Source: Planctomycetota bacterium
GTDB taxonomy: Bacteria > Planctomycetota > GCA-002687715 > DRQF01
Length of the DNA stretch: 64,000 nucleotides
Assembly (NCBI GenBank): GCA_041402125.1
Contig: JAWKSY010000022.1
Coordinates: 8,122 to 72,121, forward strand
Direction of reading: 5' to 3'
In this document: piece by piece, positions 15,716-31,346 of the stretch
How the letters are laid out: every line of letters begins with the position of its first letter
Numbering within the stretch: position 1 is the first letter of the stretch
Program-made: the position numbers and the translations under genes
The notes under the pieces: model-generated
The model's input: the letters and a program-made list of their open reading frames with translations, nothing else
What the model was told of the DNA's origin: nothing
The model's database searches: none

Positions 15716-15720
15716 ACCGT

Positions 15721-16737
15721 TCAGTCCGAGGTCTTCGGCAGGGGACGGTAGCCCTCGCGGTCGCGGATCCAGCGCAGGAAGCGCTTGGGGTCGATGCCGC
15801 TCTCGAAGGGACTCGGCAGGTAGCGGATGCGGTGTCCGCGGTAGGGCTCGATCCGCACGCCGCGCAGCGGACGGAGGTCTCCGGTCGGCGAGATCCGTTC
15901 ATCGCCGATGACGGCCGGATCGCGCGGCACCCGCGCCATGAACCCGTCGCTGAAGAGCTCGAGGTAGTCGAGCTCCCGTTCGAGCTCCGCGTCGCCCCGG
16001 GCGAGACCCGCCGCCGTGACGTGCTCGGCCGAACCTTCCGGGCGGAAGCGCATCGGGCCCGCCGGCGGCGCGGTCACATGGTCGACCCAGACGCGCCCCT
16101 CGGCGACGTAGACGCTGCGCCAGAGGAGCAGGCTCAGAGGCATCGGCAGGGAGCGCGCGCGCTCGATCCGGTGGCCCCGGCTCGCCGCGATCTCGGCCTG
16201 CGCCCCGGCGACCCGCTCGTGCTGGATCACCCCGAGGCCGCAGTAGAGGACGAAGGCGAGCAGCGCGAGGACCGCGGGGCGCCGTCGCCCGCGGCGGTGC
16301 GAGAGCACCACGCCGACCAGCAGCGACAGCGTGGGGATCGGATCGATGATCGGGAGGCAGTCCCAGGCCGTGCGCGCGTCGCTGAAGGGCCAGAGGAGAT
16401 GCGTTCCGTAGCTCGTGCAGGCGTCCATGAGGCCGTGCGTCGCGTAGGCCGCCAGCGAGGCGCCGAGCACCGCCCGCCAGCGCTCGCGGAAGCGTGGGGA
16501 GGCGAGGAAGGGCAGGGCGGCGATGAGGGCCCCGACGGGGATGAAGGCGAGACAGTGCGTGAAGTGGCGGTGGAGGATCTCGGGGAAGGGATGGTCCACC
16601 GCCCGCACGATCAGGACGTCCACGTCGGCGAGGGCGCCGGAGACGGCCCCGATCCAGGTCGCGGAGCGCTCGAGCGATCGCGAGTAGAGGGCGCGGGCGG
16701 CCGCCGCGCCCAGCAAGGCCTGGCTCAGGTTGTCCAT
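15721..16737 (-). CDS. Membrane-bound metal-dependent hydrolase, YdjM/DUF457 family
   Basis: The product starts MDNLSQALLGAAAARAL and carries His-rich motifs (HRHFTHCLAF, HGLMDACTSYGTHLLWPF). The hydrophobic N-terminal half fits the family. Confidence 0.7.
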   Translation of the reverse strand: MDNLSQALLGAAAARALYSRSLERSATWIGAVSGALADVDVLIVRAVDHPFPEILHRHFTHCLAFIPVGALIAALPFLASPRFRERWRAVLGASLAAYATHGLMDACTSYGTHLLWPFSDARTAWDCLPIIDPIPTLSLLVGVVLSHRRGRRRPAVLALLAFVLYCGLGVIQHERVAGAQAEIAASRGHRIERARSLPMPLSLLLWRSVYVAEGRVWVDHVTAPPAGPMRFRPEGSAEHVTAAGLARGDAELERELDYLELFSDGFMARVPRDPAVIGDERISPTGDLRPLRGVRIEPYRGHRIRYLPSPFESGIDPKRFLRWIRDREGYRPLPKTSD

Positions 16738-16908
16738 CGTCCGCGCGTGCGCTCCCGTCTCCGCGTGCCGACCGCCGCAATCCCGGGCGCGCGGTCGAAG
16801 TCGCTGTCAGAGGATGTCACCCTTGCGGCGGCGGCGCTCGCCGGAGTCCCGCCCCGTGAGGCCCATACGCCTACGCGCCCCGGGGCGCGAGGTTCCGGAG
16901 AGAACGCC

Positions 16909-17259
16909 ATGAATCGCACCGCTCGCCTCGTCCTCGCCTTCATCGCCGTCCTGATCCTGATCGGCGTCGTCGGGGTCGCCGTCAAGGGGACACACGCCCT
17001 GACGGGGCTCTACGTCGGCGCCGGGCTCTCGCTGCTCCTCCTCGTGCCCTTCTTCCGGGCGAAGGCGGGCCACGCGGGCGCGCGGACGCTCGCCTTCTGG
17101 ATGAGCATCGTCTTCTTCGTGCTCGTGCTCGGTCGCGCGGTCCCGGCCTGGATGAAGATCGCGAACGGCAGTTCGGACAAGGTCTTCGCCGCCGTCCTGA
17201 TCTCCTCGATGGGCGCCGCCTGCGCCCTCTTCGCCGCCCTCTTCCGCGCTCGTGAATAA
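16909..17259 (+). CDS. Small membrane protein of unknown function (116 aa, 3-4 TM)
   Basis: The ATG is preceded by GGAGAG, and GC3 bias is strong. The product MNRTARLVLAFIAVLILIGVVGV... is hydrophobic. Its stop, TAA, lies inside palindromic repeat copy A1. The 677-aa track ORF upstream is an artefact. Confidence 0.5.
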   Translation: MNRTARLVLAFIAVLILIGVVGVAVKGTHALTGLYVGAGLSLLLLVPFFRAKAGHAGARTLAFWMSIVFFVLVLGRAVPAWMKIANGSSDKVFAAVLISSMGAACALFAALFRARE

Positions 17260-17329
17260 AAGGGGTCAGACCCCATTTATTCAATTTGGGCCCCATTTTG
17301 AATAAATGGGGTCTGACCCAATTTATTCA
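17253..17329. repeat. Two inverted copies of a 31-bp AT-rich palindromic element (TGAATAAAAGGGGTCAGACCCCATTTATTCA at 17253-17283, TGAATAAATGGGGTCTGACCCAATTTATTCA at 17299-17329) filling the convergent intergenic gap
   Basis: Read directly from the sequence. Each copy is a GC stem flanked by A/T-rich arms on both sides, so it looks like a bidirectional intrinsic terminator. The same element recurs at 26096 and 29488-29564. Confidence 0.6.
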
Positions 17330-17331
17330 TT

Positions 17332-18795
17332 TCACTCGGGGAGCGGGACGGGGAAGACCTCGTTCGGCTCTCGGTCCTCGCGCGCGATGGTCTTGAGGCG
17401 CGCGACGATGTCCGGATGGGCGTCCGCGACGTTCGTCGACTCCGCGGGATCGGTCTCGAGGTCGTAGAGCTGGACGGCCTTCGGGCGCTTGGTCTTCAGC
17501 CCGGCCCAGATCGCCTTCCAGCGGCCCTCGATGACGGCGATCTGGCCGCCGTACTCGGGGAACTCCCAGTGGAGGAAGGCGTGCTTCGGCTGCTCCTTCC
17601 GCCCGAGGAGGGTGGGGAGGTAGCTGAGGCCCTGGCCTCCGGCCGGGACCTCGTATCCGCAGAGCTCGCCCAGCGTCGGCATCAGGTCCTGGAAGCCGGA
17701 GACGTGATCGGTGACGGTCCCCGGCGCGACGCGGCCCGTCCAGCGCGCGATCGTCGGCACGCGGAGTCCGCCCTCGTAGACGGATCCCTTGCGACCGCGC
17801 AGGTCGCCGGCGCTGCGGAAGAAGGTGGTGTCGACACCGCCGACGTCGTGCGTCGGACCGTTGTCGCTCGTGAAGAGGACGAGCGTGTCCGGACCGAGTC
17901 CGAGCTCGTCGATCAGGCCCACCACCCGTCCCACGTGATCGTCGAGGTGGCTGATCATCGCCGCGTAGCCGGCGCGGGGACGCGGGTGGAGATAGCCGCG
18001 GCCGCCGAGATAGGGCGCCTCGTCCCACTCCTTCGGGTAGCGGTCCACCCAGCTCTGCGGCGGTTGCATCGCGAGGTGCGGCTCGACGAGAGGCAGGTAG
18101 AGGAAGAAGGGGCGATCGGCGTGGCGACGCACGAAGCCGAGCGCGGCCTCGATCATCAGGTCCGGCGCGTACTGATTGCCGCGGAAACGGCTCCAGTCTT
18201 CGGGCGCTTCCGCGAGCTTCTGGTGCGGCCGGAACGAAGGGTTGTCGAGGGGGAACTTCTCGCGGTTCAGCCAGAGATGCTCGGGGTAGAAGTTGTGGGC
18301 CTGACGCTGGCAGTTGTAGCCGAAGAAGAGGTCGAAGCCCTGGCCCACGGGATCGGAGTCCGTTCCGGGCGGGCCGAGGCCCCACTTCCCCATGCCGCCG
18401 GTCGCGTAGCCTCGCGAACGCATGAGCTCGGCGACGGTGACGACGTCGCCGCCCATCGGGTGCTGGCCCTCCGGCTTGAACTCCTTGTTCCCCCGGATCC
18501 TCGCGTGAGGGAGCGAGCGGCCGCTCATGAGGACGCAGCGCGAAGGCGCGCAGACCGGGGCGCCGGCGTAGTGCCGCGTGAAGCGCATCCCCTGGGTCGC
18601 GAGGCGATCGAGGTTCGGCGTCGCGATCTTCTCCTGCCCGTAGCAGCCGAGCTCTCCGTAGCCGAGATCGTCGGCGAGGATGACCACGACGTTCGGGAGG
18701 CGGGGCGCGGGGGCAGGTGCCGGATCCTGCGCGGGAAGGCCCGCTGCGAGGAGGAAGAGTCCGATCCCGATGGCGAGGAAGATCTTGTGACACAT
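17332..18795 (-). CDS. Formylglycine-dependent sulfatase (arylsulfatase A family), signal peptide
   Basis: The core reads [19 protein letters not shown] ... [12 protein letters not shown] (CxPxR motif) ... GKWGLG ... LFTSDNGP. Confidence 0.9.
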
Positions 18796-18913
18796 GGGGC
18801 GGGTTCGCTCCGAGGGGCCAGGGGCGGTATCCTACCCCGTTCCGCCGCGGCCGTCCCGGGATCGGGCGGCGGGGAGGCAGCGACGCAAGCCCCTGGGGCA
18901 AAGCGGCTTCGGC

Positions 18914-18938
18914 GCGCCGGTCCTCCGGCGCCTTTTTT
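18914..18938 (+). terminator. Terminator-like hairpin (GCGCCGG tcct CCGGCGC) followed by TTTTTT in the sulfatase/rpsN divergent intergenic region; possible leader attenuator or sRNA 3' end
   Basis: A 7-bp GC stem with a 4-nt loop and a T6 run was read on the plus strand, 130 nt upstream of rpsN. No upstream plus-strand CDS explains it. Confidence 0.3.
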
Positions 18939-19068
18939 GTCCGGGCCGGTGGAAGCCGGCCCCGGGCCTCGATACATTGTCGGGCCGCGGATGGTCCGAG
19001 AGGGCCCCAGGGGAACCGGATGGCCCCGGACGACCGCGGGAACCGATCACGAGACCGGACAGGGACTC

Positions 19069-19374
19069 ATGGCGAAGAAGTCGAAGCTCGAGAAGAAGAA
19101 GGAGCAGGAGCGGCTCATCGCGAAGTTCGCGGAGCGCCGTCGCCAGCTCAACGCCATCATGAAGAACTACTCGCTCCCGGTGGAGGAGCGAGAGGAAGCG
19201 CGCGCCAAGCTGCTCAAGATGCCGCGTGACTCCCACCCGAACCGGATCCGCCTGCGCTGCAGCCTGACCGGCCGCCCGCGCGCCTACTACCGCAAGTTCG
19301 GTCTCTCCCGCATCAAGTTCCGCGAGCTCGCGCACGACGGCGCCCTTCCGGGCGTCCGCAAGGCGAGCTGGTAG
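19069..19374 (+). CDS. rpsN: 30S ribosomal protein S14, long zinc-independent (C-minus) form
   Basis: The 101-aa product reads [101 protein letters not shown]. It has no CxxC pairs. Confidence 0.85.
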
Positions 19375-19386
19375 GAGATCAGCGCG

Positions 19387-19644
19387 ATGAAGAAAGACAC
19401 GCATCCGAACTACCGTCTGGTGTGCTTCCACGACGTGGGCGCCGACGAGAAGTTCATCGTCGGATCGACGATCGACACCAAGGACAAGATCGAGGTCGAA
19501 GGCGTCGAGTACCCGCTCGTCCGCGTCGAAATCTCGAGTGCCTCTCACCCCTTCTTCACGGGCAAGCAGAAGTTCGTCGACACGGCCGGCCGCGTCGAGA
19601 AGTTCCGCCGCCGCTACGCCTCGTCGAGCACGAAGGCGAAGTAG
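19387..19644 (+). CDS. rpmE2: 50S ribosomal protein L31 type B (zinc-independent paralog, YkgM-like)
   Basis: The product reads [63 protein letters not shown]. It is type-B-like and lacks the CxxC zinc motifs. Confidence 0.85.
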
Positions 19645-19670
19645 CCGCCCCGGAAACGGGATTCGCTGAA

Positions 19671-19704
19671 GGCCGGCGCCCCCCGAGGGCGCCGGCTTTC
19701 TTTC
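19671..19704 (+). terminator. Rho-independent terminator after rpmE2 (GGCCGGCGCCC cccgag GGGCGCCGGC TTTCTTTC)
   Basis: A 10-bp GC stem plus T-rich tract lies 27 nt after the L31 stop. Confidence 0.6.
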
Positions 19705-19784
19705 ATTCCCGCCCGCGGATCCGCCGCGTTGCATAAAGATGCGGTCCCTCCAGCCCCCGGCGCGCGCCCGCCGATGAGAAGGGC

Positions 19785-19988
19785 ATGCGACTCACCGGAA
19801 TCGGCCTCCAGGGCTATCAGAACGCGCAGGGGCGTCTCGAAGGCGCCGCCACGAAGATCGTCCGCGACGGTCCCGACGTGGATGCGATCGTCGAACTGAA
19901 GCAGTCCGAGCAGGCCGGCAAGCTCAGCACCGAGATCATCAAGCGCGGGATCGAGCTCGAGGACTCGCTGCTCGACATCCTCGCCTGA
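19785..19988 (+). CDS. Small hypothetical protein (67 aa), weakly YjfB-like (putative motility protein family)
   Basis: GC3 bias is strong. The product is MRLTGIGLQGYQNAQGRLEGAATKIVRDGPDVDAIVELKQSEQAGKLSTEIIKRGIELEDSLLDILA. The family resemblance is weak. Confidence 0.4.
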   Translation: MRLTGIGLQGYQNAQGRLEGAATKIVRDGPDVDAIVELKQSEQAGKLSTEIIKRGIELEDSLLDILA

Positions 19989-20045
19989 TCCCGGCGATCG
20001 GCGCCGGAGCGAGCCTCCCGCGCATCAGGAACTGACGATCGACCT

Positions 20046-21092
20046 TCAGCGCGGTCGTCGCCGGGCCACGTCCAGCTCCGGATCGAGCGCCGCGCCCTCG
20101 AACAGATGTTCGGCCAGCCGTCGCGCGCAGCCCGGGGCGTAGAGCGCGCCCTTCGAACCGAGACCGCCGAGGATCGCGATCTCCGATCGGTCCGCCGCGC
20201 GGCCGAGGTAGGGCCGCCAGTCGATCCCGCCGGCGCGCGCCCCGGCGCGGTGGTCGACGACCTCGAAGTCCGACGCGCCGATCGCGCGCCCCGCCGTCTC
20301 CAGCTCCCGTCGCCCCTTCTCCGTCGGTCCGGCCTCGGCGTCGTCCCAGGCGTAGATCGCGCCGATCTGCGCGCGATCGTCCTCGAGCGGCAGCAGCCAC
20401 TTCTCACGGTTCAGGATCGTCCGGGGCGGCGTCGAGAGGAGTCGCACGTCGAGCCGTTCGCCGCGCGAGACGCGCCAGGGCAGGCGACGGAAGGGGCCGG
20501 CGCTCGCCGCGTGGTGTCCGGTGCAGAGCACCGTCGTGTCCGGACGCGTGCCGTCGCCGAGCGGGTCCCCGTCCGCGCCCTCGACGGCGACCGCCACGGG
20601 GCGGAAGGCGCCCCGCGCCAACAGCTCCGCGCGTGTCGCCCGGAGCAGGGCCGGCACGTCGAGCGCGAAGGCCCCGAGGATCTCGAAGCCGCCGTGTTCG
20701 TCCGCCAGTTCGGGCGCGAGCGTTCCCGGCGCGTGGATCTCGCCGAGGTGGGGCGCGAGCGCGTCGTGGTCGTCGCGGGCGAGGAAGCGCTCGCGGTCCT
20801 CGGCCGACCGGAAGGCGAAGTGGATCGCGCGTTCGCGGACGAGCCGGATCCCGAAGCGGCGCTCGAGGGAAGCGTAGCGCGCACGCGCCTCGCCGGCGAA
20901 GGGGTCCCAGGCCCAGGGTCGGTTGTGCTTCGGGCCCGCGATGGGATTCACCATCCCGGCCGAGACCGGCGAGGCCGCGTGGGGGCGATCGGCGTCGACG
21001 ACGAGCACCCGGCGACCGCGGTCGAGGAGTTCGAGCGCGAGCAGGCTGCCGGCGAGTCCCTGGCCGACCACGAGCACTTCGGGGGGTGACAT
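20046..21092 (-). CDS. FAD-dependent oxidoreductase (DAO / glycine-oxidase ThiO-like)
   Basis: The dinucleotide-binding N-terminus reads VLVVGQGLAGSLLALELLDRGRRVLVVD, and the C-terminal part contains GRAADRSEIAILGGLGSKGALYAPGCARRLAE. Confidence 0.75.
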   Translation of the reverse strand: MSPPEVLVVGQGLAGSLLALELLDRGRRVLVVDADRPHAASPVSAGMVNPIAGPKHNRPWAWDPFAGEARARYASLERRFGIRLVRERAIHFAFRSAEDRERFLARDDHDALAPHLGEIHAPGTLAPELADEHGGFEILGAFALDVPALLRATRAELLARGAFRPVAVAVEGADGDPLGDGTRPDTTVLCTGHHAASAGPFRRLPWRVSRGERLDVRLLSTPPRTILNREKWLLPLEDDRAQIGAIYAWDDAEAGPTEKGRRELETAGRAIGASDFEVVDHRAGARAGGIDWRPYLGRAADRSEIAILGGLGSKGALYAPGCARRLAEHLFEGAALDPELDVARRRPR

Positions 21093-21150
21093 GCCTTCCT
21101 TGTGCGGCGCGGCGCCGCCCGAGGCAAGGGGCGGCTGCTATCCTGCGCCC

Positions 21151-22002
21151 ATGGACGCCGTGCTCGCCTCTCTCCTATGTGATCCCGCTCTCGTCGAACG
21201 GGCGGCCGACGACTGGAAGGAACTGTCCGTCGTCGGCGCGGCGAATCGCGTGTGGGCCACGTCCGACGGCGGAGGCGCGGTGCTGAAGCTCGTCGACGAT
21301 CCGGCCAAGGCGCGGCGTGAACGGCGCGGACTCGGGGTCTGGGCTCCGGCCGCGGGCGTCGCGGCGCCGCGCCTGCTCGCGTCGGAGCTCGAGCGCGAAC
21401 CCCGTGCCCTCCTGATGACGCGCCTCGTCGGAGGTCCGGTCGAGACGCGCGCCCTCACGGCGGGCGAACGCGCGGACCTTCACCGAGCGATGGGAGCGTC
21501 GTTGCGGCGCCTGCACGAGCTCCCGCTCGCGGACGAGGATCCGCTGCCGCTCGCGGAGGCGCTCCGCCGCCGGACCGAGGCGGCGCTCGCCGGCGGACCA
21601 CCGCCGGGATGCCCCGCGTCCCTCTTCGCGCGCGCCGAGCGGCGGCTCCTCGATCACGTCTGGACCGCGGGTCCGCGTCGCGCGGCGCATCGCGACTTCC
21701 GGGAACGCAACTGGTGGATCGGCGACGACGGCTCGCTCGCGGTGTTCGATTTCGAGCACGCGCGACCCGACGATCCGATGGTGGATCTCGTCCGGCTGCG
21801 CGAGACGGACTGGCGCGCCGAGCCGGCGCTCGAAGCGGCATTCCGCGAGGGCTACGGCGGTCCGGATGCGACGGAGGAGGCGCGCCTCGAGATCCTCGAG
21901 ATCGTGCACGCGCTCGGCACCTTGCGCCGACCCGCGGGCGTCGGAGGCGTCACCTTCGTCGATGCGGCGCGCGCCGTCCTCGAGCGCCGGCTCGGGGGCT
22001 GA
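21151..22002 (+). CDS. Phosphotransferase-enzyme-family (APH-like) small-molecule kinase
   Basis: The catalytic-loop motif is HRDFRERNW, and DFEHARPDDPMVDL follows. The ATG at 21151 is used. The track ORF starting at 20923 has a non-coding-looking N-terminal extension. Confidence 0.7.
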   Translation: MDAVLASLLCDPALVERAADDWKELSVVGAANRVWATSDGGGAVLKLVDDPAKARRERRGLGVWAPAAGVAAPRLLASELEREPRALLMTRLVGGPVETRALTAGERADLHRAMGASLRRLHELPLADEDPLPLAEALRRRTEAALAGGPPPGCPASLFARAERRLLDHVWTAGPRRAAHRDFRERNWWIGDDGSLAVFDFEHARPDDPMVDLVRLRETDWRAEPALEAAFREGYGGPDATEEARLEILEIVHALGTLRRPAGVGGVTFVDAARAVLERRLGG

Positions 22003-22065
22003 GACGGGGGGCGACAGCGGCCGGCGGCTGGGGTAGAACGGGCCCTCGCCCCCCAGGAGTCCAGC

Positions 22066-25000
22066 ATGTCGATCCCTCCCCGCGTCCTCTCGATCCTCCT
22101 CGGCGTCATCCTCCTCGCGACGGTCCTCCGCGCCCAGGACGAGGGCGACGCGCGCCTGCTCCGATTCCCGCACGTCCAGGGCGACCGCGTCGCCTTCGTC
22201 CGCGGCGGCGACATCTGGACGGTGCCTCTCGCCGGCGGCGTCGCGCGGCGCGTCACGAGCTTCGACGAGGGCTTCGAACTGTTCCCGCGGATCTCGCCCG
22301 ATGGGAGCACGATCGCGTTCTCGGCCGAGTACGCGGGGTCGCGACAGATCTACGTCGTCCCCTACGAGGGCGGCGTGCCGCGCCAGCTCACCTGGTATCC
22401 CGACGTCGGTCCGATGCCGCCGCGCGGCGGATACGACAACCTGCCGCTCGACTGGACGCCGGACGGGAAGAAGATCCTCGTGCGGATGAACCGCACGCCC
22501 TACGGACAGCGCGTCGGCCGCTACTTTCTCGTCGACCCCGGCGGGGTCGGTCTCGAGACGCCGCTCGAGATCCCCGAGGGCGCGGCCGCGACCTTCTCGC
22601 CGGACGGCCGCCGACTCGCCTACAGCGTGATCAGCCGCGAGTGGCGGACCTGGAAGCGCTACCGCGCCGGCCGGGCGCAGGACGTCTGGATCTACGACCT
22701 CGATCGTCACGAGGCGACGCGTCTCACCGACTTCGCGGGCACCGACAACCAGGCGATGTGGCTGGGCGACCGCATCTACTTCACGAGCGACCGCAACGGC
22801 ACGCTCAACCTCTGGTGCCATGACCTCGCCACCGGCAAGCAGCGCGCGGTCACGAAGTACGCGGACTACGACGTCCTCTTCCCCTCGCGCGGAGCGAACG
22901 GGATCGCCTTCGAACGCGGAGGACGCCTCTGGTTCATGCACGCCGGGACGGAGGAGGTGCGCGAGATCCCGGTGCGCATCGCCGACGATCGCCCCTTCCA
23001 GCGCCCGGTCTGGCACGAGGGCGCGAAGAACCCGGGTGAGCACGCGCTCGGTCCGAAGGGCAAGTCGGCGCTCGTCGAGTTCCGCGGCGAGATCTTCGAG
23101 GTCCCGACCGCGGAGGGGGAGGCTCGCTGCCTCACGAACTCGCCGGATCGCCGCGAGCGGTCGCCCGGCTGGTCGCCGGACGGCCGCTGGATGAGCTGGC
23201 TCGCGGAGGCCGGTGACGACTACGAACTCTTCCTGCGGGATCGCGCGACGGGTGAGGAGCGACAGCTCACGCGGGACAGCGGCGCCTGGATCCTCGGCTA
23301 CTCCTGGTCGCCGGACGCGAAGTGGCTGGCGGTGTGGGACAAGGCCAACCGGCTGCGCGCGCTCGAGGTGGAGACCGGCGCGTGGCGCGAGATCGACCGT
23401 GCGGACGAGGGCGGGCTCGGCTCGGTCCGCTGGTCCGCGACCTCCGACTGGCTCGCCTGGTGCAAGACGGGCGAGAACCGTCTGCGCGACGTCTGGCTCG
23501 CGCGACTCGAGGATCCCCGTCCGGTCCGCGTGACGAGCCCGCGCTGGTCGGACGATGCCGTCGCCTTCGATCCCGAGGGACGCTACCTCTACTTCAGCTC
23601 GGCGCGCGACTTCGTGTACGGAGACCTCGGATTCGAGGAGCGGATCTACGCGCTGCTCCTCCGGCCCGATGTCGTCTCGCCGCTCGCGCCGCGTCGCGAG
23701 GTCGAGCCGCTCCCCGGGGAGGGAGAGAAGAAGGGGAAGAAGGGCGAGGAGACGGACAAGGGCGACGCGGATGCGACCGCCCGGCTCGAGATCGAACTCG
23801 AGGGCCTCGCCGACCGCCTCGTCGCGCTGCCGATGTCGAGCGGGCGCTACGGGGGCCTCCTCGCGACGGCGGCCGGTCCGCTCGTCGTCGTCGACGGCAA
23901 GCTCCAGCGCTACTCGCTCGAGGAGCGCAAGGCGGAGACCGTACTCGAGGGCGTTCGCGGCTACACGCCCGACGCGACGGTCACGCGATTCCTCTACCGC
24001 CACCAGGGCGGGATCGCGATGGCGGAGACGAAGCCCGGACAGAAGGCGGGCAAGAACGCGCTCGATCTGTCGGAGCTGCGCGTCCGCGTCGAGCCGCCCG
24101 TCGAGTGGAGCCAGATGTATCGCGACGCCTGGCGCATCATGCGGGACTGGTTCTACGACCCGAAGATGCACCGCGTCGACTGGGTCGCGAAGCGGGAGCG
24201 CTATGCGCCTCTCCTCGCGCACATGTCTCACCGCTCCGATCTCGATTTCCTGCTCGGGGAACTCGTCGGCGAGCTCAACGCGGGCCACACCTACATCCAG
24301 CCGGGCGACGGCCCCTCGGTGGCGCGCGTCCGCAACGGAGCGCTCGGGTGCGAGCTCGAGGTCGCGGACGGGCGATACCGCATCGCGAGGCTCTTCCGCG
24401 GCGAGAACTGGAACGCCGATGCGCGCAATCCGCTCACCGAGCCCGGCGTCGACGCGCGCGAGGGCGAGTTCCTCCTCGCGATCGACGGCGTCCCCCTCGC
24501 GGCGAACGAGAACCCCTACCGCCGGCTCGAGGGGCGGGCCGACCGCCCGGTGCGCCTGACGCTCGGCCCGGGGCCGGGCGAGGAGGGGGCGCGCGAGGTC
24601 GTCGTGCGACCGATCGCGAGCGAGGTCCAGCTCCGCTACGTCGACTGGGTCGAGCGCAACCGCCGTCTCGTCGACGAGCTGTCCGGCGGGAAGATCGGCT
24701 ACGTCCACGTGCCGAACACCTCCGTCGAGGGTCACCGACGGCTCTTCGAGGGCGTGCGCGCGCTCGCGCGGGAGAAGCAGGCCATCCTCGTCGACGACCG
24801 CTACAACGGCGGCGGATTCATCCCGGATCGGATGGTCCAGGCGCTCGGGAGCCGCGTGCTCAACTACTGGTCGCGGCGCGACGCCGAGCTCTACGCGACA
24901 CCGGAGTTCGGCTTCAACGGGCCGATGTGCATGCTCATCAACGGGTACTCCTCGTCGGGAGGCGATGCCTTCCCGTACTACTTCCGGAAGTCCGGTCTCG

Positions 25001-25299
25001 GGCCGCTCATCGGCCAGACGACCTGGGGTGGTCTCGTCGGCTACTCGGGATCGCCTCGCCTCGTCGACGGCGGCGGTCTCGCGGTCCCGTCCTTCGCCTT
25101 CGTCAACGACGACGGCGCCTGGGACGTCGAGGCGGTCGGGGTCGCGCCCGACATCGAGGTGCTCGACGATCCCGGAGCGATCGTCGCCGGGCGCGAACCG
25201 ATGATCGAACGCGGCGTCGCCCACCTCCTCGAGGAGATCGCGCGCCGCGCGAAGATCGTCCGGCCGCCGGTGCCGGACGGTCCCGACCGCGATCGTTGA
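22066..25299 (+). CDS. Tricorn protease homolog (S41B), signal peptide, beta-propeller + PDZ + S41 catalytic domains
   Basis: The 1077-aa product has an AGGAG RBS. Tricorn-typical blocks are RFPHVQGDRVAFVRGGDIWTVP, WYPDVGPMPPRGGYDNLPLDWTPDGKKILVR and VLVDDRYNGGGFIPDRMV ... LINGYSSSGGDAFPYYFR. Confidence 0.9.
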   Translation: MSIPPRVLSILLGVILLATVLRAQDEGDARLLRFPHVQGDRVAFVRGGDIWTVPLAGGVARRVTSFDEGFELFPRISPDGSTIAFSAEYAGSRQIYVVPYEGGVPRQLTWYPDVGPMPPRGGYDNLPLDWTPDGKKILVRMNRTPYGQRVGRYFLVDPGGVGLETPLEIPEGAAATFSPDGRRLAYSVISREWRTWKRYRAGRAQDVWIYDLDRHEATRLTDFAGTDNQAMWLGDRIYFTSDRNGTLNLWCHDLATGKQRAVTKYADYDVLFPSRGANGIAFERGGRLWFMHAGTEEVREIPVRIADDRPFQRPVWHEGAKNPGEHALGPKGKSALVEFRGEIFEVPTAEGEARCLTNSPDRRERSPGWSPDGRWMSWLAEAGDDYELFLRDRATGEERQLTRDSGAWILGYSWSPDAKWLAVWDKANRLRALEVETGAWREIDRADEGGLGSVRWSATSDWLAWCKTGENRLRDVWLARLEDPRPVRVTSPRWSDDAVAFDPEGRYLYFSSARDFVYGDLGFEERIYALLLRPDVVSPLAPRREVEPLPGEGEKKGKKGEETDKGDADATARLEIELEGLADRLVALPMSSGRYGGLLATAAGPLVVVDGKLQRYSLEERKAETVLEGVRGYTPDATVTRFLYRHQGGIAMAETKPGQKAGKNALDLSELRVRVEPPVEWSQMYRDAWRIMRDWFYDPKMHRVDWVAKRERYAPLLAHMSHRSDLDFLLGELVGELNAGHTYIQPGDGPSVARVRNGALGCELEVADGRYRIARLFRGENWNADARNPLTEPGVDAREGEFLLAIDGVPLAANENPYRRLEGRADRPVRLTLGPGPGEEGAREVVVRPIASEVQLRYVDWVERNRRLVDELSGGKIGYVHVPNTSVEGHRRLFEGVRALAREKQAILVDDRYNGGGFIPDRMVQALGSRVLNYWSRRDAELYATPEFGFNGPMCMLINGYSSSGGDAFPYYFRKSGLGPLIGQTTWGGLVGYSGSPRLVDGGGLAVPSFAFVNDDGAWDVEAVGVAPDIEVLDDPGAIVAGREPMIERGVAHLLEEIARRAKIVRPPVPDGPDRDR

Positions 25300-25361
25300 C
25301 GCGCCCCCGATCGGTGTCCTAGGATCGGGGGACGGGAGCACGACGCAACGGGAGGCCGGAC

Positions 25362-26087
25362 ATGGACGGACGGGTCGTCTTCATCACGGGCGTGAGTTCG
25401 GGCCTGGGCGCGGGCCTCGCCCTCGAGCACCTCGATCGCGGTGACCGCGTCTTCGGCACAAGCCGGCGCGAGCCGCCCTGCGAACTCCTCGAGCACGCGC
25501 GCTTCCGCGACGCGCGGGGCGACCTGCGCGATCCGGAGCAGGCGGCGGAGATCGTCGCCACGCTCCTGGGCAAGGAGGGACGGGTCGATCTCGCCTGGCT
25601 CAACGCCGGCGTGCTCGGCGAGATCGTCGACATGCAGGACGCGACGCTCGACGAGCTCCGCGCGACGATGGAAACGAACGTCTGGGCCAACAAGTCGGTG
25701 CTCGACGCGCTCTTCGCGCTCGAGGTGCCGGTGCACCAGATCCTCACGATCTCCTCCGGCGCGGCCGTCAACGGCAACCGCGGCTGGGGCGGTTACGCGA
25801 TCTCGAAGGCCGCCCTGAACATGCTCACGCAGCTCTACGCGGCCGAGTGCGAGGACACGCACTTCTGTGCGCTCGCACCGGGCCTCGTCGACACCGCGAT
25901 GCAGGAGTCGATCCGGCTCATGCCGCCGGACCCGCGCTTTCCCTCGCTCGACAAGCTCCGCGCCGCCGGCGGCACGGACTTCATGCCCGGTCCCCGCGAG
26001 GCCGCGCGGCGTCTCGTCGACCGCGTCGACTTCATCCGCTCCCGCGTCCCCAGCGGCTCCTTCGCCGACATCCGCCTCCTCGCCTGA
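25362..26087 (+). CDS. SDR-family NAD(P)-dependent oxidoreductase
   Basis: The protein carries VVFITGVSSGLGAGLA, NAGV and the catalytic YAISKAAL motif. Confidence 0.85.
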   Translation: MDGRVVFITGVSSGLGAGLALEHLDRGDRVFGTSRREPPCELLEHARFRDARGDLRDPEQAAEIVATLLGKEGRVDLAWLNAGVLGEIVDMQDATLDELRATMETNVWANKSVLDALFALEVPVHQILTISSGAAVNGNRGWGGYAISKAALNMLTQLYAAECEDTHFCALAPGLVDTAMQESIRLMPPDPRFPSLDKLRAAGGTDFMPGPREAARRLVDRVDFIRSRVPSGSFADIRLLA

Positions 26088-26095
26088 CGCGAAAG

Positions 26096-26126
26096 TGAAT
26101 AAATCGGGTCAGACCCAATTTATTCA
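26096..26126. repeat. Single copy of the 31-bp palindromic element (TGAATAAATCGGGTCAGACCCAATTTATTCA) between convergent SDR and metallophosphoesterase genes
   Basis: Read directly from the sequence. It lies 9 nt after the SDR stop and 13 nt before the stop of the minus-strand gene. Confidence 0.55.
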
Positions 26127-26138
26127 AAATGGGACGCC

Positions 26139-26951
26139 CTACTCGGGCGTGAAGGTGCCGCGGCTGTCGAGGAAGGTGCGCTCGGGCCAGCGCCAGGCGA
26201 CGAGCGGGCGGCCGTAGGCGACGCCCCAGTCGACGCAGATGGCGTTCCGGCCGGGGCCGAGGGTGCGGGGGCCGGTCTTCATCGAGTAGTGACCGAAGGC
26301 GAGGTCGGGCGCGCCGGCCGGATGGTCCTTCCACCAGTGGACGCGCCGCCGCGTGCGGCGGAAGCCCTCCGAGTCCCGGTAGGGGGCCGATTCCTCCTCG
26401 GGGCCCCGCAGGACGTGATCGGCGGCGGGGGAGAGCTCGGCGTCGGGCGCGATGGCGGCCCAGTCCTCGAGCGTCGCGAGGCGCGGCGGGAGCGCCGCGA
26501 GGTGATCGTCGTCCCAGGCGGCGTGCACGACGCGGAGGCGATCGCCGGCCAGCTTCAGCGCGAAGGGCAGACGTGAGAGGAAGGCGAAGCAGCGCTCCCA
26601 GCGGTCGCGATCGGCGCGGATCTGCGCCATCGAGTTCTTCGCCTGCTTGCGGCGGTGGGGCCGCGTCGCGAGCTCGAGGACGAGGTGGACCAGGTTCACC
26701 TCGTGGTTGCCGAGAACGGCGAGACCGACGCCGTCCTCGATCAGCGCCTCCGTGAGCTCGAGGCAACCCAGAGGGTCGGGACCCCGGTCGACGAGGTCGC
26801 CGACCGAGACGAGGACCCGACCCTCCGGATGGGACCAGCGCCCCTCGACGTGCCGGTAGCCGAGCGCGTCGAGGAGGGACCGGTAGGGGGCGATCATCCC
26901 GTGGACGTCGCCGACGATGTCGAAGCGCTCGGCGTCGAGCGCCCCGGTCAC
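26139..26951 (-). CDS. Calcineurin-like metallophosphoesterase (ApaH/PrpE-like Ser/Thr or bis-nucleosyl-tetraphosphate phosphatase family)
   Basis: The motifs are FDIVGDVHGMIAPYRSLLDALGY, GDLVDRGPDPLGCLE and LGNHEVNLVH. The GTG start overlaps the M28 stop as GTGA. It runs in frame with the upstream junk in the 1102-aa track ORF. Confidence 0.7.
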   Translation of the reverse strand: MTGALDAERFDIVGDVHGMIAPYRSLLDALGYRHVEGRWSHPEGRVLVSVGDLVDRGPDPLGCLELTEALIEDGVGLAVLGNHEVNLVHLVLELATRPHRRKQAKNSMAQIRADRDRWERCFAFLSRLPFALKLAGDRLRVVHAAWDDDHLAALPPRLATLEDWAAIAPDAELSPAADHVLRGPEEESAPYRDSEGFRRTRRRVHWWKDHPAGAPDLAFGHYSMKTGPRTLGPGRNAICVDWGVAYGRPLVAWRWPERTFLDSRGTFTPE

Positions 26952-29447
26952 TCGCGCGAGCCCGGGACGAGGTCGAAGGTCTTGCGCTCCGAGCCGCGGA
27001 GGACCGTGATCGTCGTCTTCACGCCGACCTTCAGCTTCTCGAGGGCCGCGGTGTACTCGTAGATGTCGGCGATCGCGTCGCCGCCGATGCCGACGATGAT
27101 GTCGCCGCCGCGCACGCCCGCCGTCCAGGCCGGCCCACCCTTGGCGACACCGTCCAGCGGCACACCGGGCACGTCGGCGCCGGCGTAGTCGGGGATCGTG
27201 CCGAGGTAGGGGCGGGCGCCTCCGGTCGTCTTCGGCTTCGACTCCTCGTGCATGATGAAGTCGGGCTCGTCGGCGTTCACGGCGAGCGAGCGCAGCATCA
27301 GGCCCATGAACTGGGTGATCTTCTCCATCTCGGCGAAGTCGAGCTTCTCGACGGTGTCGGTCGGACGGTGGTAGTCCTCGTGGGCGCCGGTGAAGGCGTT
27401 GAGGATCGGGACGCCGTTGAGGAAGAAGGGCGTGGTGTCGGTCGGCAGGTTGCAGTCCTGCACGATCGCCAGCGCGAAGGCCGACCGGTGCGTTGCGGCG
27501 CTCGATCTCACGCTCCCAGATCGAGCTCGATCCGACGCCCGAGATGATTACCTTCTGGTTGAAGCGTCCGATCATGTCCATGTTGAGGTAGGCGGCGACC
27601 TGTCCGGAGAGGTTCTCCGTGCCGGCCTTCTCCATCATCTGGCGGGCGAAGTGCTTCGAGCCGAAGAGGCCGAGCTCCTCGCCGGACCAGAGCGCGAAGA
27701 TCACGTCGCGCTTCAGCTTCAGGCGACCCGACTTCATCTGGTGGGCGAAGTATTCGGCGATCTCGAGGACGCCCGCGACGCCGGAGGCGTTGTCGTCGGC
27801 GCCGAGGTGGGGGAGGAGCTTGTCCTCGCCGCGGGCGTTGCTGTAGCGACCGCCCTCGTGTCCGAGGTGGTCGATGTGGGCGCCGATGATCACCGGCGGC
27901 TTGCCGCGACCCTCCTCGCCGGCCGGGAGCACGCCGATGACGTTGCGGCCGGTGATGGCGAGGTTCTCGCCGTCCATCGTGAGGCGGTTGGCGCGGAAGT
28001 TCTGGAAGTAGCCGCCGTCGTCACCGCCCGGGGGGATGTGCAGGGCCTTCAGGACGTCGGCCGCGTAGGCCGTCGCGAGGCGCTCGCCCTCGGTGCCCGT
28101 GAGTCGACCGTCGAGCTCCTTCGAGGCGAGGAAGACGACGTGCTTCGCGAGGTCGCCGGCCGCGACCTCGGGACCGGTCTTCTCCGAGACCTTCGGCATC
28201 GACGGCTCGTCGGCATGGGCCGCGGCCGGCGCGTCGGAGCGCTTCGGCGCCGCCCGGACGGCGGCCAGCGCGGCGGCGTGATCCCAGCGCGCGACGTAGA
28301 TCTGCGACTGCTTGTCGGCGCCGCGGTTCGAGGTCCAGGCGATCGTCTTGCCGTCGGGCGTGAAGGTCGGGAGGCCGTCGAAGCCCTCGACGTTGGTCAC
28401 GCGGACCGGCTCCTTCTCACCGGCCGCGTCGACGAGGTAGAGCTCGAAGTTGGCGAAGCCGTGGCGGTTCGTCGTGAAGATCAGGTACTCGCCGCTGGGG
28501 TGGAAGTAGGGCGCCCAGCTCATGGCCTTGATGTGCGTCAGGCGGCGCTGGTCGCTGCCGTCGACGTTCATCGTGTAGATCTCGGCCGTCAGGCCGTCCT
28601 CCGAGAAGCGGCGCCAGCAGACCTTCTTGCCGTCGGCGGAGAAGAAGGGGCCGCCGTCGTAGCCGCGGCTGAAGGTGAGGCGGCGGACGTCGCTGCCGTC
28701 CGCGCGCATCATGTAGATCTCCATGAAGAGCGCCTTGTCGAGCTCGAAGCGCTTGCGGTCCTCCTCGCTCATCGGCTCCAGGTAGGCGGAGCGGTTCGAG
28801 GCGAAGCAGATCCACTTCCCGTCGGGCGAGTAGCTGCCCTCGGCGTCGTAGCCGCGTGCATAGGTGAGGCGGCGATCCTTCCCCGTCTCACGATCGTGGG
28901 CGAAGAGGTCGAAGTTCTCGTCGTAGTCCCACTCGTAGCGGCGGGCCTTGCCGCTCGCGCGCAGCTCGAGCTCCTCCTTCTGGTGCTCGACGGAGCGCTC
29001 GTCCAGGTGGGTCGAGGCGTAGAGGACGTGGCGGTCGTCCGGGTGGACCCACGCGCAAGTCGTCTTGCCCTGGCCGGGCGAGATGCGCTCGAGGTCGCCC
29101 GTCTCCAGGTCCATCAGGAAGATCTGGTAGAAGGGATTCGCCGGGTCACGCTCGCTCTGGAAGACGATCTTCGTGCCGTCGTGGTTGTAGTAGCCCTCAC
29201 CGGCGCGGCGGCCGTCGAAGGTGAGCTGACGCACTCCCTCGGTGAAGCGCATCCCCGGTTCCATCTCGTCCTGAGCGCGCGCCCCGACGAGGGGCAGGCC
29301 GAGGACGAGCAGGGCGAGGGCGAGCGTGCGGCGCGCGCCGGGCGTCGAGAAGAAGGGCAGCATGCGTGGGTCTCCCGGGTTCCTTGATCCCCGGGGACGG
29401 GCAGCTCCCGGGCCCCCTATTCTCGGGGGAGCCGGGCTCCGTCTCAA
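26948..29447 (-). CDS. PD40/TolB-like beta-propeller + M28-family aminopeptidase + C-terminal PDZ domain, with an apparent frameshift near 27485-27495 (possible pseudogene or 1-nt sequence error)
   Basis: The N-terminal 650 aa (signal peptide, PD40 repeats, M28 core with HIDHLGHEGG and DDNASGVAGVLE) read in one frame. After ...SIWEREIERRNAPVGL the coding signal moves to another frame. There it continues through a typical M28 C-terminus (FTGAHEDYHRPTDT) and a PDZ domain (GVRGGDIIVGIGGDAIADIYEY), ending at 26948. Confidence 0.75.
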
Positions 29448-29487
29448 GTCGAGCCGCCGGGCCCCGTTCCGGCCCTTTCCGCCTGGA

Positions 29488-29564
29488 TGAATAAGAGGGG
29501 TCAGACCCCATTTATTCAGAAAGGGGGTGAAAGTGAATAAAGGGGGTCTGACCCCTTTTATTCA
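29488..29564. repeat. Two copies of the 31-bp palindromic element (TGAATAAGAGGGGTCAGACCCCATTTATTCA at 29488-29518; TGAATAAAGGGGGTCTGACCCCTTTTATTCA at 29534-29564) between two same-strand genes
   Basis: Read directly from the sequence. Copy C2 contains the stop codon of the upstream minus-strand gene (29562-29564). Copy C1 lies 41 nt upstream of the M28 start codon. Confidence 0.6.
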
Positions 29565-31346
29565 CTTTTCGGCGTCGGTGGTGCGGTCGAGGACTTCGCG
29601 GGCCTTGCGGAGGGCCGTCGTCTCGCGCTCGCCCCAGGGAATCGACAGCACGGACCCGCCGGGCTCCGCCACGAAGGGGTAAGGGCCGGCGTGGAGAGGC
29701 TGCCGGACGGGCCCGGTGAAGCGGAGGCGGTGGAGGAAAATCGAGGCGGACCAGCGCCCCGTCGAGGAGAGGATGATCTCGGACTCGCCTCCGGCCGGGA
29801 AGTCGATCTCGCGCCTCGAGCTCCGCCGATCCGACACGAGGACGATCCGGAGCGAATCGCCGGACTCGAGCGGTGGGGGGGCGCCGAGGGACCGGACACG
29901 GAGCGTGGGACCGGCGGACAGCGCGATCTCCGTATCGCCGGGCTGGACGTCGACCCATCGGTCCAGGCATCCGATCGCGGAGACGCGCATCCGGATCGTC
30001 TCGCGAGCGCTGGCGAATCGCACGTTCCCATCCGTCGTCGCGGCTTCGATCGGAGAGGTCGTCGTGGGACTCGGCTCCTCGATCGCGAACTCCTCAAGCC
30101 TGCGCCCCTCGCCGTCCGTGGCGGTCAGGGAGTAGACGCGAAGCGCCGTCGGAACCAGCCGGCCGAGATCGAGGGCGGACCCGGCCGAGATCGGGAAGGC
30201 GGACGTCGAACCCGCGACGAGGCGGTCTCGGGTGACCAGAAAGAAACGCCAGGTGCCGACATCGACGGGATGATCTTCGATGCGTCCGTCGGCAGGGAGA
30301 GGACGGAGCTTCCGATCCGGAGGGCGCCCGTCGGGCTCCTCCACGGAATCCGGAGACTCGAGTCCGAATCGCAGCTCGCCAGGCGGGAGGCCATCCGGCA
30401 AGACGACGGTGACGGTGATGCGGCCGCGGCGCGCGGCCACGATCTCGAGGTCGGAATCGCCGATCCGGAAGCTCGTCCACGTCGCGGCGTGGGCGTTGTC
30501 GTCGACCGCGATCTCGAGCGCGGTCGGGGCGCGGTCGCGCTCCTCCCGCGTGAGCCGCGGGTCGACCACGTGTCCCCGGATCACGAAGTTCCCGTTCTCG
30601 GGGACGAGGCGGCCCTGGAGCCACTCGCCGAGGATGGGGGGCGAACCGCCCGGCGTCGTCGGGTCCGGTCGGCGGAGCATCAGGCTCACCCCGCCCACCG
30701 GTTCGCCGCGCTCGTCGACGACGCGGCCCGAGGCGATGACGGGGCGGTAGGGCACGGTGGCGACGCCGAGGTCCCAGACGTCCGGACGCGGCTCGAGGCG
30801 CGTCGCGATGTCGCCGACGAAGGCGCAGCGCTCGACGAGGTCGGTCGGGCCCCGCGCCTCGACGAAGACCTCGCGGAGCGAGCTCACCTCGGCGTCGTCC
30901 GGCAGCAGGAACTCGGCGACGCCGTCGGCGTCCGTCGTCACGCCGAGGCGCAGCGCCGAGCCGAGGATCTCGAAAACGTAGGGCGAGCCCCCGCGATCGA
31001 AGCGGAGGTGGCCCCAGACCGAATGCTCGGCGAGCGGCAGGTCGCCCTCGTCCACGAGGCGCAGGCGGAGCCGCGAGCGGCGTCGCTCCGGTCGTGATCG
31101 GGACTCCGGAGAGGACTCCGCCGTCTCCTCCGTCGTCGGGGCGTCCGACCTCGCCTCGTCGGTGGTCCGGCGGCCCTCGAGGTCCTCGAGCCGGGAACGG
31201 CGCGCGCCCGCATCCCGCCCCGCGCTCCCCTTCGCGCTCGCGTCGTCGAACCTGACGTCGGCGCCCCCGCCGCCGAAGAGGGCGACGAGGAACCAGACGA
31301 GCGCGCCGAGAGCGAGCAGGGTGGTGGCGGCGACGAGCGGCTTCAT
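29562..31346 (-). CDS. Hypothetical membrane-anchored or secreted protein (594 aa) with low-complexity linker and carboxypeptidase-regulatory-like beta-sandwich segments
   Basis: The N-terminal TM/signal segment is MKPLVAATTLLALGALVWFLVALFG. GC3 bias is strong throughout. No recognisable catalytic motif was found. Confidence 0.55.
   Translation of the reverse strand: MKPLVAATTLLALGALVWFLVALFGGGGADVRFDDASAKGSAGRDAGARRSRLEDLEGRRTTDEARSDAPTTEETAESSPESRSRPERRRSRLRLRLVDEGDLPLAEHSVWGHLRFDRGGSPYVFEILGSALRLGVTTDADGVAEFLLPDDAEVSSLREVFVEARGPTDLVERCAFVGDIATRLEPRPDVWDLGVATVPYRPVIASGRVVDERGEPVGGVSLMLRRPDPTTPGGSPPILGEWLQGRLVPENGNFVIRGHVVDPRLTREERDRAPTALEIAVDDNAHAATWTSFRIGDSDLEIVAARRGRITVTVVLPDGLPPGELRFGLESPDSVEEPDGRPPDRKLRPLPADGRIEDHPVDVGTWRFFLVTRDRLVAGSTSAFPISAGSALDLGRLVPTALRVYSLTATDGEGRRLEEFAIEEPSPTTTSPIEAATTDGNVRFASARETIRMRVSAIGCLDRWVDVQPGDTEIALSAGPTLRVRSLGAPPPLESGDSLRIVLVSDRRSSRREIDFPAGGESEIILSSTGRWSASIFLHRLRFTGPVRQPLHAGPYPFVAEPGGSVLSIPWGERETTALRKAREVLDRTTDAEK

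Follow-up and report, generated by a model that had tools for sequence, protein, structure and literature searches.

A 31-bp palindromic repeat at gene ends of a Planctomycetota contig, probably mobilized by a RAYT of subclass 2.1

Within 64,000 nucleotides of contig JAWKSY010000022.1 from a Planctomycetota bacterium (referred to as the window; coordinates are positions in this whole stretch), a 31-bp palindromic repeat is found five times at the ends of genes. By analogy with described systems, this repeat is probably a non-autonomous mobile element of the repetitive extragenic palindrome (REP) type, which is associated with, and presumably mobilized in trans by, a tyrosine transposase of the REP-associated kind (RAYT) of subclass 2.1, the TIRYT enzymes. 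We estimate the probability of this explanation at roughly 80%. Judging from the motifs, the length and the helix-turn-helix (HTH) tail of the transposase sequence, the repeat is best filed with the REP or terminal inverted repeat (TIR) families of subclass-2.1 RAYTs. The original prediction, made from the letters of the window, had already favored a dispersed REP-like element over independent terminators. The bracketing of a RAYT gene by repeat copies, the covariation of repeat core and RAYT, an empty orthologous site and the lack of target duplications all agree with that view.

The repeat, TGAATAA[AG]NNGGGTCWGACCCNNTTTATTCA, starts at positions 17253, 17299, 26096, 29488 and 29534. Five copies at three loci had been predicted, and a search with the predicted pattern, allowing up to three mismatches, recovered them with 0, 1, 2, 1 and 0 mismatches from the first copy to the last. 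In 100 dinucleotide-preserving shuffles of the window the same pattern had no match, and a relaxed search of the window for TGAATA-N15-23-TATTCA revealed no copy beyond the five. The core GGGTCWGACCC occurs five times in the window (0.05 expected) and the arm TGAATAAA nine times (0.03 expected), both exclusively at the repeat sites. The G+C content of the window is 68–76%, with 71% for the whole. The copies had been described as perfect palindromes, which has to be corrected: every one is imperfect, with a mismatch at pair 9/23, 10/22 or 8/24. The GGGGTCAG core is present in each of them. The copies are arranged as one single unit and two doublets that resemble REPINs (REP doublets forming hairpins):

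17253–17329: doublet 1, REPIN-like, 77 bp, inverted; nearly the entire spacer between two convergent genes
17253–17283: REP unit 1, TGAATAAAAGGGGTCAGACCCCATTTATTCA, center A; element positions 5–7 are the TAA at 17257–17259
17284–17298: spacer of doublet 1, 15 bp, ATTTGGGCCCCATTT; loop of the predicted long hairpin
17299–17329: REP unit 2, center T, inverted relative to unit 1
26096–26126: single REP unit, center A, the most degenerate copy
29488–29564: doublet 2, REPIN-like, 77 bp
29488–29518: REP unit 4, center A
29519–29533: spacer of doublet 2, 15 bp, GAAAGGGGGTGAAAG
29534–29564: REP unit 5, center T; its last three bases are TCA (29562–29564)

Both doublets have a pitch of 46 bp and a spacer of 15 bp. 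In each doublet the first unit is centered on A and the second on T, so that the units are inverted, in line with the predicted inverted pairs. The reverse complement of doublet 2 is identical to doublet 1 at 67 of 77 positions, and its reverse-complemented spacer matches that of doublet 1 at 9 of 15. By this sequence comparison, the two doublets are homologous as whole units, with opposite orientation and equal spacer length. A derivation of the singlet at 26096 from a truncated doublet was considered as well; with 9 of 15 spacer matches as weak support, it is not claimed here.

The family was traced by scanning species-representative genomes with the pattern GAATAANNNGGGTCNGACCCNNNTTATTC, which fixes 22 of the 31 positions. 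At least 92 stretches were found; L-numbers (L004, L059 and so on) denote compared loci from other genomes and metagenomes. Among the matches listed, 78 of 80 lie in eight uncultured Actinomycetota metagenome-assembled genomes (MAGs), four of which carry at least 25, 19, 12 and 11 loci, respectively. RAYT homologs from the repeat-bearing Actinomycetota MAGs bear the name Gaiellales at NCBI. Viral contigs scanned with the repeat pattern gave no match. The consensus is matched exactly by 82 of 109 copies. Oriented with A at the center, the commonest sequence is TGAATAAACGGGGTCAGACCCCTTTTATTCA (47 of 111 copies), which has a C·T mismatch at pair 9/23, followed by a form that is fully paired there by C·G (28 of 111). 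At pair 8/24, A-T is replaced by C-G in four copies. Conservation within the repeat is highest in the paired termini TGAATA/TATTCA. Its boundaries are sharp: the information content exceeds 2.6 bits inside and is down to about 0.1 bit at exactly −1 and +32. A comparison of the window with the 92 loci by blastn detected no similarity, and the tblastx matches were nothing but low-complexity high-GC noise (about 30% identity), which left no orthologous neighborhoods for comparison.

Copies in Actinomycetota are nearly always singlets, and doublets are rare (L022, L053). The inverted doublets at L022:6061–6158 and L053:6672–6771 (MAG MFD05502.bin.3.96) have a pitch of 67–68 bp. Their units, for example GGGGTCAGTCGCC, are not self-complementary but are reverse complements of each other. 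Hence, a hairpin is possible only for the doublet.

In seven loci on different contigs of uncultured soil bacteria (L004, L007, L033, L059, L175, L176 and the soil metagenome locus L093), two inverted copies of the repeat bracket a single open reading frame (ORF), with center A upstream and center T downstream. The bracketing copies are about 775 bp apart in L004, L007, L033 and L059. The product of the bracketed ORF has 237 residues and matches the NCBIfam model NF047646 (REP_Tyr_transpos) with 83.3 bits (cut-off 80, E 1.5e-23) and Pfam Y1_Tnp with 27.6 bits (cut-off 23). It shows the motifs NHFH, GHVFQGRF, RYIALNP and WRWSS. The HUH histidines H60 and H62 as well as Y120, the tyrosine of RYIxLNP, are invariant in an alignment of 25 homologs. 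An HTH is located at the C-terminus (residues 204–232), where HTH_23 matches residues 206–232 with 26.7 bits (cut-off 24.6); PF13384 is precomputed on many RAYT homologs. A phmmer search of the PDB with one RAYT sequence gave no match; the profile of the 25 homologs matched PDB entry 4ER8, TnpA-REP of E. coli, with an E-value of 2.3e-7 and with the HUH and YIxxNP motifs aligned. In L033 (4515–5202) the RAYT gene is broken into two frames at about position 4711, while the flanking REPs are intact. This gene is either a pseudogene or affected by a long-read indel error.

The RAYT gene has a constant neighborhood. In L174–L177, the loci with gene tables, it lies between an M20 peptidase gene and either metH or DUF4389-atpC-atpD, and metH also follows RAYT in L033 and L059. 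The RAYTs of L174–L177 are 50% to 59% identical to that of L059. A fixed syntenic position despite this divergence is the behavior of a vertically inherited, non-jumping RAYT. Over positions of about 8700–16700 in L174–L177 the gene order M20 peptidase, RAYT, metH, DUF4389, atpC, atpD is conserved; metH is missing in L177, where RAYT abuts DUF4389.

The 31-mers that flank the diverged RAYTs keep the termini TGAATA/TATTCA, whereas their core changes from GGGGTC.GACCCC to GGGCC.GGCCC in L177 and to GGTGCC.GGCACC in L174. For 80 further, more remote RAYT relatives from metagenomes, the flanks often contain inverted repeats whose cores are related, namely GGGGTCAGACCCC, GGTGTCAGACACC, GTGCCWGGCAC or GGGGTCAGGCC; GGGGTCAG is found in such flanks, too. 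Covariation of core and RAYT, as read from these sequences, is the strongest evidence for protein and palindrome being a cognate pair.

Several related palindromes were observed beside the family. A second family with the core CGGTGCCWGGCACCG has 14 copies in the 92 Actinomycetota loci and none in the window. Its loci are L017, L042, L045, L049, L057, L076 and L084 (e.g. L084:6577–6607 and L042:3813–4066). It sometimes has TGAAT...ATTCA-like arms, is sometimes clustered and several times adjoins a copy of the first family. The core CGGTGCCWGGCACCG also flanks the RAYT in L174 and the metagenome RAYTs of L097, L098, L103, L162, L169 and L172. At L037:915–963, a remnant TGAATTCA, in which the element ends are joined and the interior is gone, adjoins a 32-nt copy with a 1-nt insertion. 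At about 5320–5358 of the same locus the variant palindrome GCACCAACCGGGGTCAGACCCCTTTTGGTGC, with the same core and different but still complementary arms, is located beside a standard copy. Burkholderiales MAG contigs (62% G+C) contain one orthologous copy, AGAATAAATGGGGTCAGACCCCATTTATTCT at L031:3229–3259 and CGAATAAAT...TTCT at L041:1395–1425. Its end bases differ (AGAATAAA...TTTATTCT). Either a palindromic terminator that arose by chance or a stray family member in a third phylum could account for it, and it was not counted with the family.

For mobility of the repeat, a filled and an empty orthologous site could be compared. L020 carries a copy at position 2482 and L057 does not. The TGA of the gene coincides with the TGA of the element at this site, and the length of the protein is unchanged. 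The flanks of the copies contain no sign of target-site duplication, since direct-repeat counts for k=2–5 are at or below the permutation mean. A miniature inverted-repeat transposable element (MITE) derived from an insertion sequence with a DDE transposase, with terminal inverted repeats that are recognized as double-stranded DNA, would also be short, dispersed, palindromic and occasionally present in doublets. Besides the missing duplications, however, the 31 bp form one continuous palindrome without internal unique sequence, and the only gene found bracketed by copies encodes an HUH/Y1 enzyme instead of a DDE transposase. We regard a MITE of this kind as very unlikely indeed.

Placement at gene ends had been predicted to be non-random, and the gene contexts are clear in this respect. 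The 64 copies with both neighboring genes called comprise 46 in convergent, 18 in tandem and none in divergent contexts. Among 138 genes that run into a copy (a count that includes orthologous sites, which are not all independent), 45 stop at the TGA of the element (positions 1–3) and 49 at its TAA (positions 5–7), so that 94 use a stop codon of the element. About 40 of the 138 end at their own stop codon up to 46 nt upstream of the copy. The third reading frame, which has no stop in the element, is used by essentially none of them. In the relatives that keep a short spacer, the native stop is exactly where the terminal TGA/TCA of the element falls (L011/L014 compared with L075, L086 compared with L037). 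Indels of 1 or 4 nt at the junction swap a gene between the TGA and the TAA stop (L051 compared with L019/L055, L058 compared with L091), and this swap alters no more than one Glu of the protein; in some cases the protein stays the same. As the termini TGAATAA/TTATTCA provide stops in two of three frames on both strands, the element can abut or replace a native stop codon.

Orthologous loci also differ close to the repeat: indels of 540–880 bp are found directly beside a REP copy in L034/L070, L079/L044 and L078/L051-L052-L019-L055. These differences suggest that the repeats mark hotspots of gene-content change.

The wholly avoided promoter regions (0 divergent contexts) are the opposite of what is expected for operators, an alternative that had been raised in the original prediction and is not supported. 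More generally, the repeat could be a duplex site for a dimeric operator-binding or nucleoid-organizing protein and be kept by selection. Its binder could be a regulator, the HTH of the RAYT, or a factor like IHF or gyrase as for the bacterial interspersed mosaic elements (BIMEs) of E. coli. Dyad symmetry over 31 bp, termini TGAATA/TATTCA that stay constant where the core changes and the C-terminal HTH of the RAYT would be compatible with such a site. Nevertheless, the commonest copy (47 of 111) contains the C·T mismatch in its stem, a feature relevant to a folded single strand but not to a duplex dyad, and no regulator gene is linked to the repeat. Protein binding to the duplex is thus quite improbable as the reason for the family, although it may be an additional role.

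A DNA uptake or recombination signal, likewise raised in the original prediction and not supported, would be another reason for many similar sequences; biased uptake or gene conversion would then keep the copy number high. The uptake sequences of Neisseria and Haemophilus often form inverted pairs in terminators. However, known uptake signals have 9–12 nt and occur within genes as well, whereas the 31-bp repeat is confined to gene ends. Moreover, the repeat is linked to the RAYT and varies with it. We assign next to no probability to an uptake signal.

The original prediction had also pointed to the architecture of a bidirectional intrinsic terminator. As a shape, this architecture is present: a GC stem of 5 bp is extended by A/U arms and followed by UUUAUU. 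A scan with a terminator consensus (5–7-bp stem, five T in eight) flags units 1, 4 and 5 on both strands. For single units the predicted folding energies lie between −14 and −18 kcal/mol (RNA) and between −8 and −14 kcal/mol (single-stranded DNA). The 77-bp doublets are predicted to fold into one long hairpin each, with −52 to −55 kcal/mol as RNA (96-nt stretches), −28 to −32 kcal/mol as single-stranded DNA (77 bp) and a z-score of about −10. For doublet 1 the values are −53.3/−52.1 kcal/mol as RNA (96-nt stretch 17245–17340) and −31.7 kcal/mol as single-stranded DNA (77 bp). The z-scores of all hairpins range from −3.9 to −10.9. At the third locus, the stop codon of the upstream gene comes first, then doublet 2 and then a promoter-like site (29447–29419, minus strand) for the M28 peptidase gene.

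These properties, together with the strict location at gene 3' ends and the absence of divergent contexts, would fit bidirectional intrinsic terminators that were selected by the host. In this case the likeness of the copies would be due to selection or to a copied "terminator module" and no transposase would be involved. However, selection for termination would not fix 28 of 31 bases over more than 100 sites in two phyla. It also leaves unexplained why inverted copies bracket a RAYT in several species and why the core changes with the RAYT. In addition, the GC stem is only five pairs long, and the predicted fold has the U-tract pairing with the A-tract. Terminator selection is therefore unlikely as the origin of the family, and we consider this explanation as a whole quite unlikely. 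Termination cannot explain the identity of the copies, and terminator function would be a by-product of the repeat rather than what gave rise to it. As a secondary effect at the level of the host, the shape of the element makes it plausible that transcription would end in both directions and/or that mRNA 3' ends would be protected; for termination we see roughly even odds.

If the repeat is a REP-type element mobilized by the RAYT, a mechanism can be proposed on the paradigm of IS200/IS605 and TnpA-REP. The palindrome would fold into a hairpin on single-stranded DNA. The RAYT would recognize this hairpin by its GGGGTCAG core, the C·T mismatch at pair 9/23 and the conserved termini TGAATA/TATTCA, and would cut and rejoin DNA without target duplication. 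Copies would survive where they are least harmful, that is directly after genes, where the element would abut or replace the native stop codon and often make up the whole spacer between convergent genes. For the window's own genome we infer such activity from sequence.

Several observations weigh against the proposed REP-RAYT explanation. A tblastn search for a RAYT in the 64-kb window was negative, and for this genome the link to the transposase would run through identity of the element alone. No two of the five copies in the window are identical in sequence, as would be expected of an old or decaying population more than of one that is actively spreading. Conserved positions outside the 31 bp and a GTAG or CGTC tag were looked for in the flanks and not found, so that the classical REP tag is absent. 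Only one clean empty site was detected. Finally, conservation at orthologous sites was considered as an indication of selection or recent movement and was rejected: identity between orthologous copies is 91% at the nine free positions, compared with 88% for the flanks, hence the free positions evolve about like the flanks. Identity at orthologous sites is uninformative anyway, because the search pattern fixed 22 of the 31 positions.

The biology of REP-RAYT systems and REPINs is well described (PMC3116915, PMC5581495, PMC3733652). TnpA-REP proteins of subclass 2.1 have the motifs NHVH or NH[YF]H, W[EQ] or FQ, YIELNP, Y[IV]HLNP or Y[IV]xLNP, and SS (PMC6006769, Table 1). Their median length is 238 residues and their C-terminal HTH-type domain is Bac_DnaA_C, HTH_23 or HTH_28 (PMC6006769). 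With NHFH, FQ, YIALNP, SS, 237 residues and a C-terminal HTH of the HTH_23 type, the RAYT described here fits this subclass by motif comparison. The same study from 2018 equates subclass 2.1 (RAYT group 1 of Bertels) with the TIRYT enzymes (PMC6006769). The repeats flanking TIRYT genes in these "TIRtron" systems share GGGGWSAS, and some of them are self-complementary and form moderately abundant dispersed families, in dimers or clusters (Di Nocera et al. 2013, PMC3733652). GGGGTCAG in the flanking repeats here fits this published motif. In contrast, the present repeat, a compact palindrome of 31 bp, reaches at least 19–25 copies per MAG, has AT-rich arms within a 71% G+C genome and contains built-in stop codons, and its hosts, Gaiellales-like Actinomycetota and Planctomycetota, are not among the taxa emphasized in PMC3733652 and PMC6006769. 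The survey scores subclass 2.1 as "REP: no", with no REP-like sequences beside the gene (PMC6006769). Thus, a high-copy REP family is now linked to a RAYT subclass that a large survey had scored as REP-less.

The classical REP/REPIN-RAYT systems (RAYT groups 2 and 3), known from E. coli, Pseudomonas and Stenotrophomonas, likewise consist of short imperfect palindromes in many extragenic copies. They share the syntenic, vertically inherited RAYT bracketed by inverted copies, doublets that form long hairpins, and a location at convergent or tandem gene ends. For GTAG REPs, it has already been reported that the termini donate a stop codon (TAG) and that convergent and tandem gene ends are preferred (PMC3733652). 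The family described here differs by lacking a GTAG/CGTC end tag; orientation is marked only by the center base and the mismatch at 9/23. Furthermore, singlets dominate in the Actinomycetota MAGs, and the RAYT has an extra HTH and is remotely similar to 4ER8. Members of the IS200/IS605 family (IS608, ISDra2) have HUH/Y1 chemistry, subterminal hairpins in single-stranded DNA and no target duplication, and by analogy they serve as the template for the mechanism proposed above. Their transposases move their own gene, which results in several identical copies, whereas here the gene, apparently single-copy, has a fixed chromosomal position and dispersal is limited to the 31-bp hairpins. Bidirectional Rho-independent terminators also have a GC stem with an A-tract and a U-tract between convergent genes but are not identical in sequence across loci or phyla and have no link to a transposase. 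Our literature search revealed no paper that joins REP or RAYT with Actinobacteria, and none that mentions the core sequence of the repeat. With this family, REP-RAYT biology now also covers uncultured Gaiellales-like Actinomycetota as well as Planctomycetota. For annotation it means that many stop codons and whole convergent spacers in repeat-bearing genomes are derived from the repeat. Such gene ends have consequences for the calling of gene ends, for how high-GC MAGs are assembled and binned, and for any prediction of terminators.

Regarding the host, NCBI has proteins from the MAG of a "Planctomycetota bacterium" (MEZ6197587.1) that match the M28 peptidase and IleS encoded in the window at 100% identity, and the named next-best matches of IleS are all from Planctomycetota. 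The repeat is consequently present in two phyla, the Gaiellales-like Actinomycetota MAGs and the Planctomycetota MAG of the window, with 28 of 31 positions fixed, the same termini and the same GGGGTC-W-GACCCC core. The window contains mostly 77-bp doublets, whereas singlets prevail in Actinomycetota. This sharing is the most interesting point of the family, and the termini with stops in two frames on both strands also lift the repeat above a routine family. The sharing, with the RAYT at an old, syntenic locus in the Gaiellales-like Actinomycetota, points to horizontal transfer and establishment of the REP-RAYT pair, with the family being a portable gene-end module as well, a scenario that we propose tentatively and place slightly below an even chance. 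Establishment of REPIN-RAYT systems after horizontal transfer has been called "vanishingly" unlikely (bioRxiv 10.1101/2021.07.10.451892). If transfer across phyla is true, the repeat would be a concrete test case against purely vertical inheritance of these systems. In the nearest available relatives of the window, with IleS 82% and 75% identical, no copy is present in the 45 kb and 23 kb sampled (68 kb in total). This absence is weak evidence, because even the 64 kb of the window contain only three repeat loci. A comparison with L173, L178 and L179 showed a large shift of base composition within one lineage: the G+C content is 71% in the window and 63% and 59% in these closest relatives.

The genes next to the repeat copies in the window were settled by Pfam matches and G+C content by codon position (GC3 for third positions):

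16909–17259, plus strand: gene of a 116-aa predicted membrane protein; no Pfam match, GC3 0.87–0.97
17332–18795, minus strand: sulfatase gene; stop 2 nt past REP unit 2
25362–26087, plus strand: SDR gene; stop 8 nt before the copy at 26096
26139–29447, minus strand: M28/PD40 peptidase gene; stop 12 nt past the copy at 26096
29562–31346, minus strand: gene of a 594-aa protein; no Pfam match, its TGA stop is the terminal TCA of REP unit 5

Locus 1 (17253–17329) and locus 2 (26096–26126) are located between convergent gene pairs; locus 3 (29488–29564) has a minus-strand gene on either side and lies upstream of the M28 start. This arrangement had been described correctly, as had the copies that contain or abut stop codons (TAA at 17257–17259, TCA at 29562–29564). 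For the gene at 16909–17259, unit 1 supplies the last 1.3 codons and the TAA. The surrounding ORF 15226–17259 is coding only in its last 351 nt, as the remainder is occupied by YdjM on the opposite strand. Other genes in the window encode CysS, GH95, a fucosidase, a sulfatase and IleS. At gathering thresholds, Rfam gave no match at the repeat loci; elsewhere in the window it matched only a tRNA gene (57456–57515, 46.4 bits). Canonical GC-rich terminator-like hairpins, unrelated to the repeat, are found at 18914–18931 and 19668–19700. Thus, ordinary terminator shapes are also present in this genome. The 594-aa protein is only 27% identical to its counterpart in the relative L173. The M28/PD40 ORF of the window (26139–29447, minus strand) includes a C-terminal Metallophos domain, while the 70%-identical relative at L173:10001–13230 consists of two adjacent genes for 799 and 276 residues. 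This difference is due either to gene fusion or to a frameshift in one assembly or the other.

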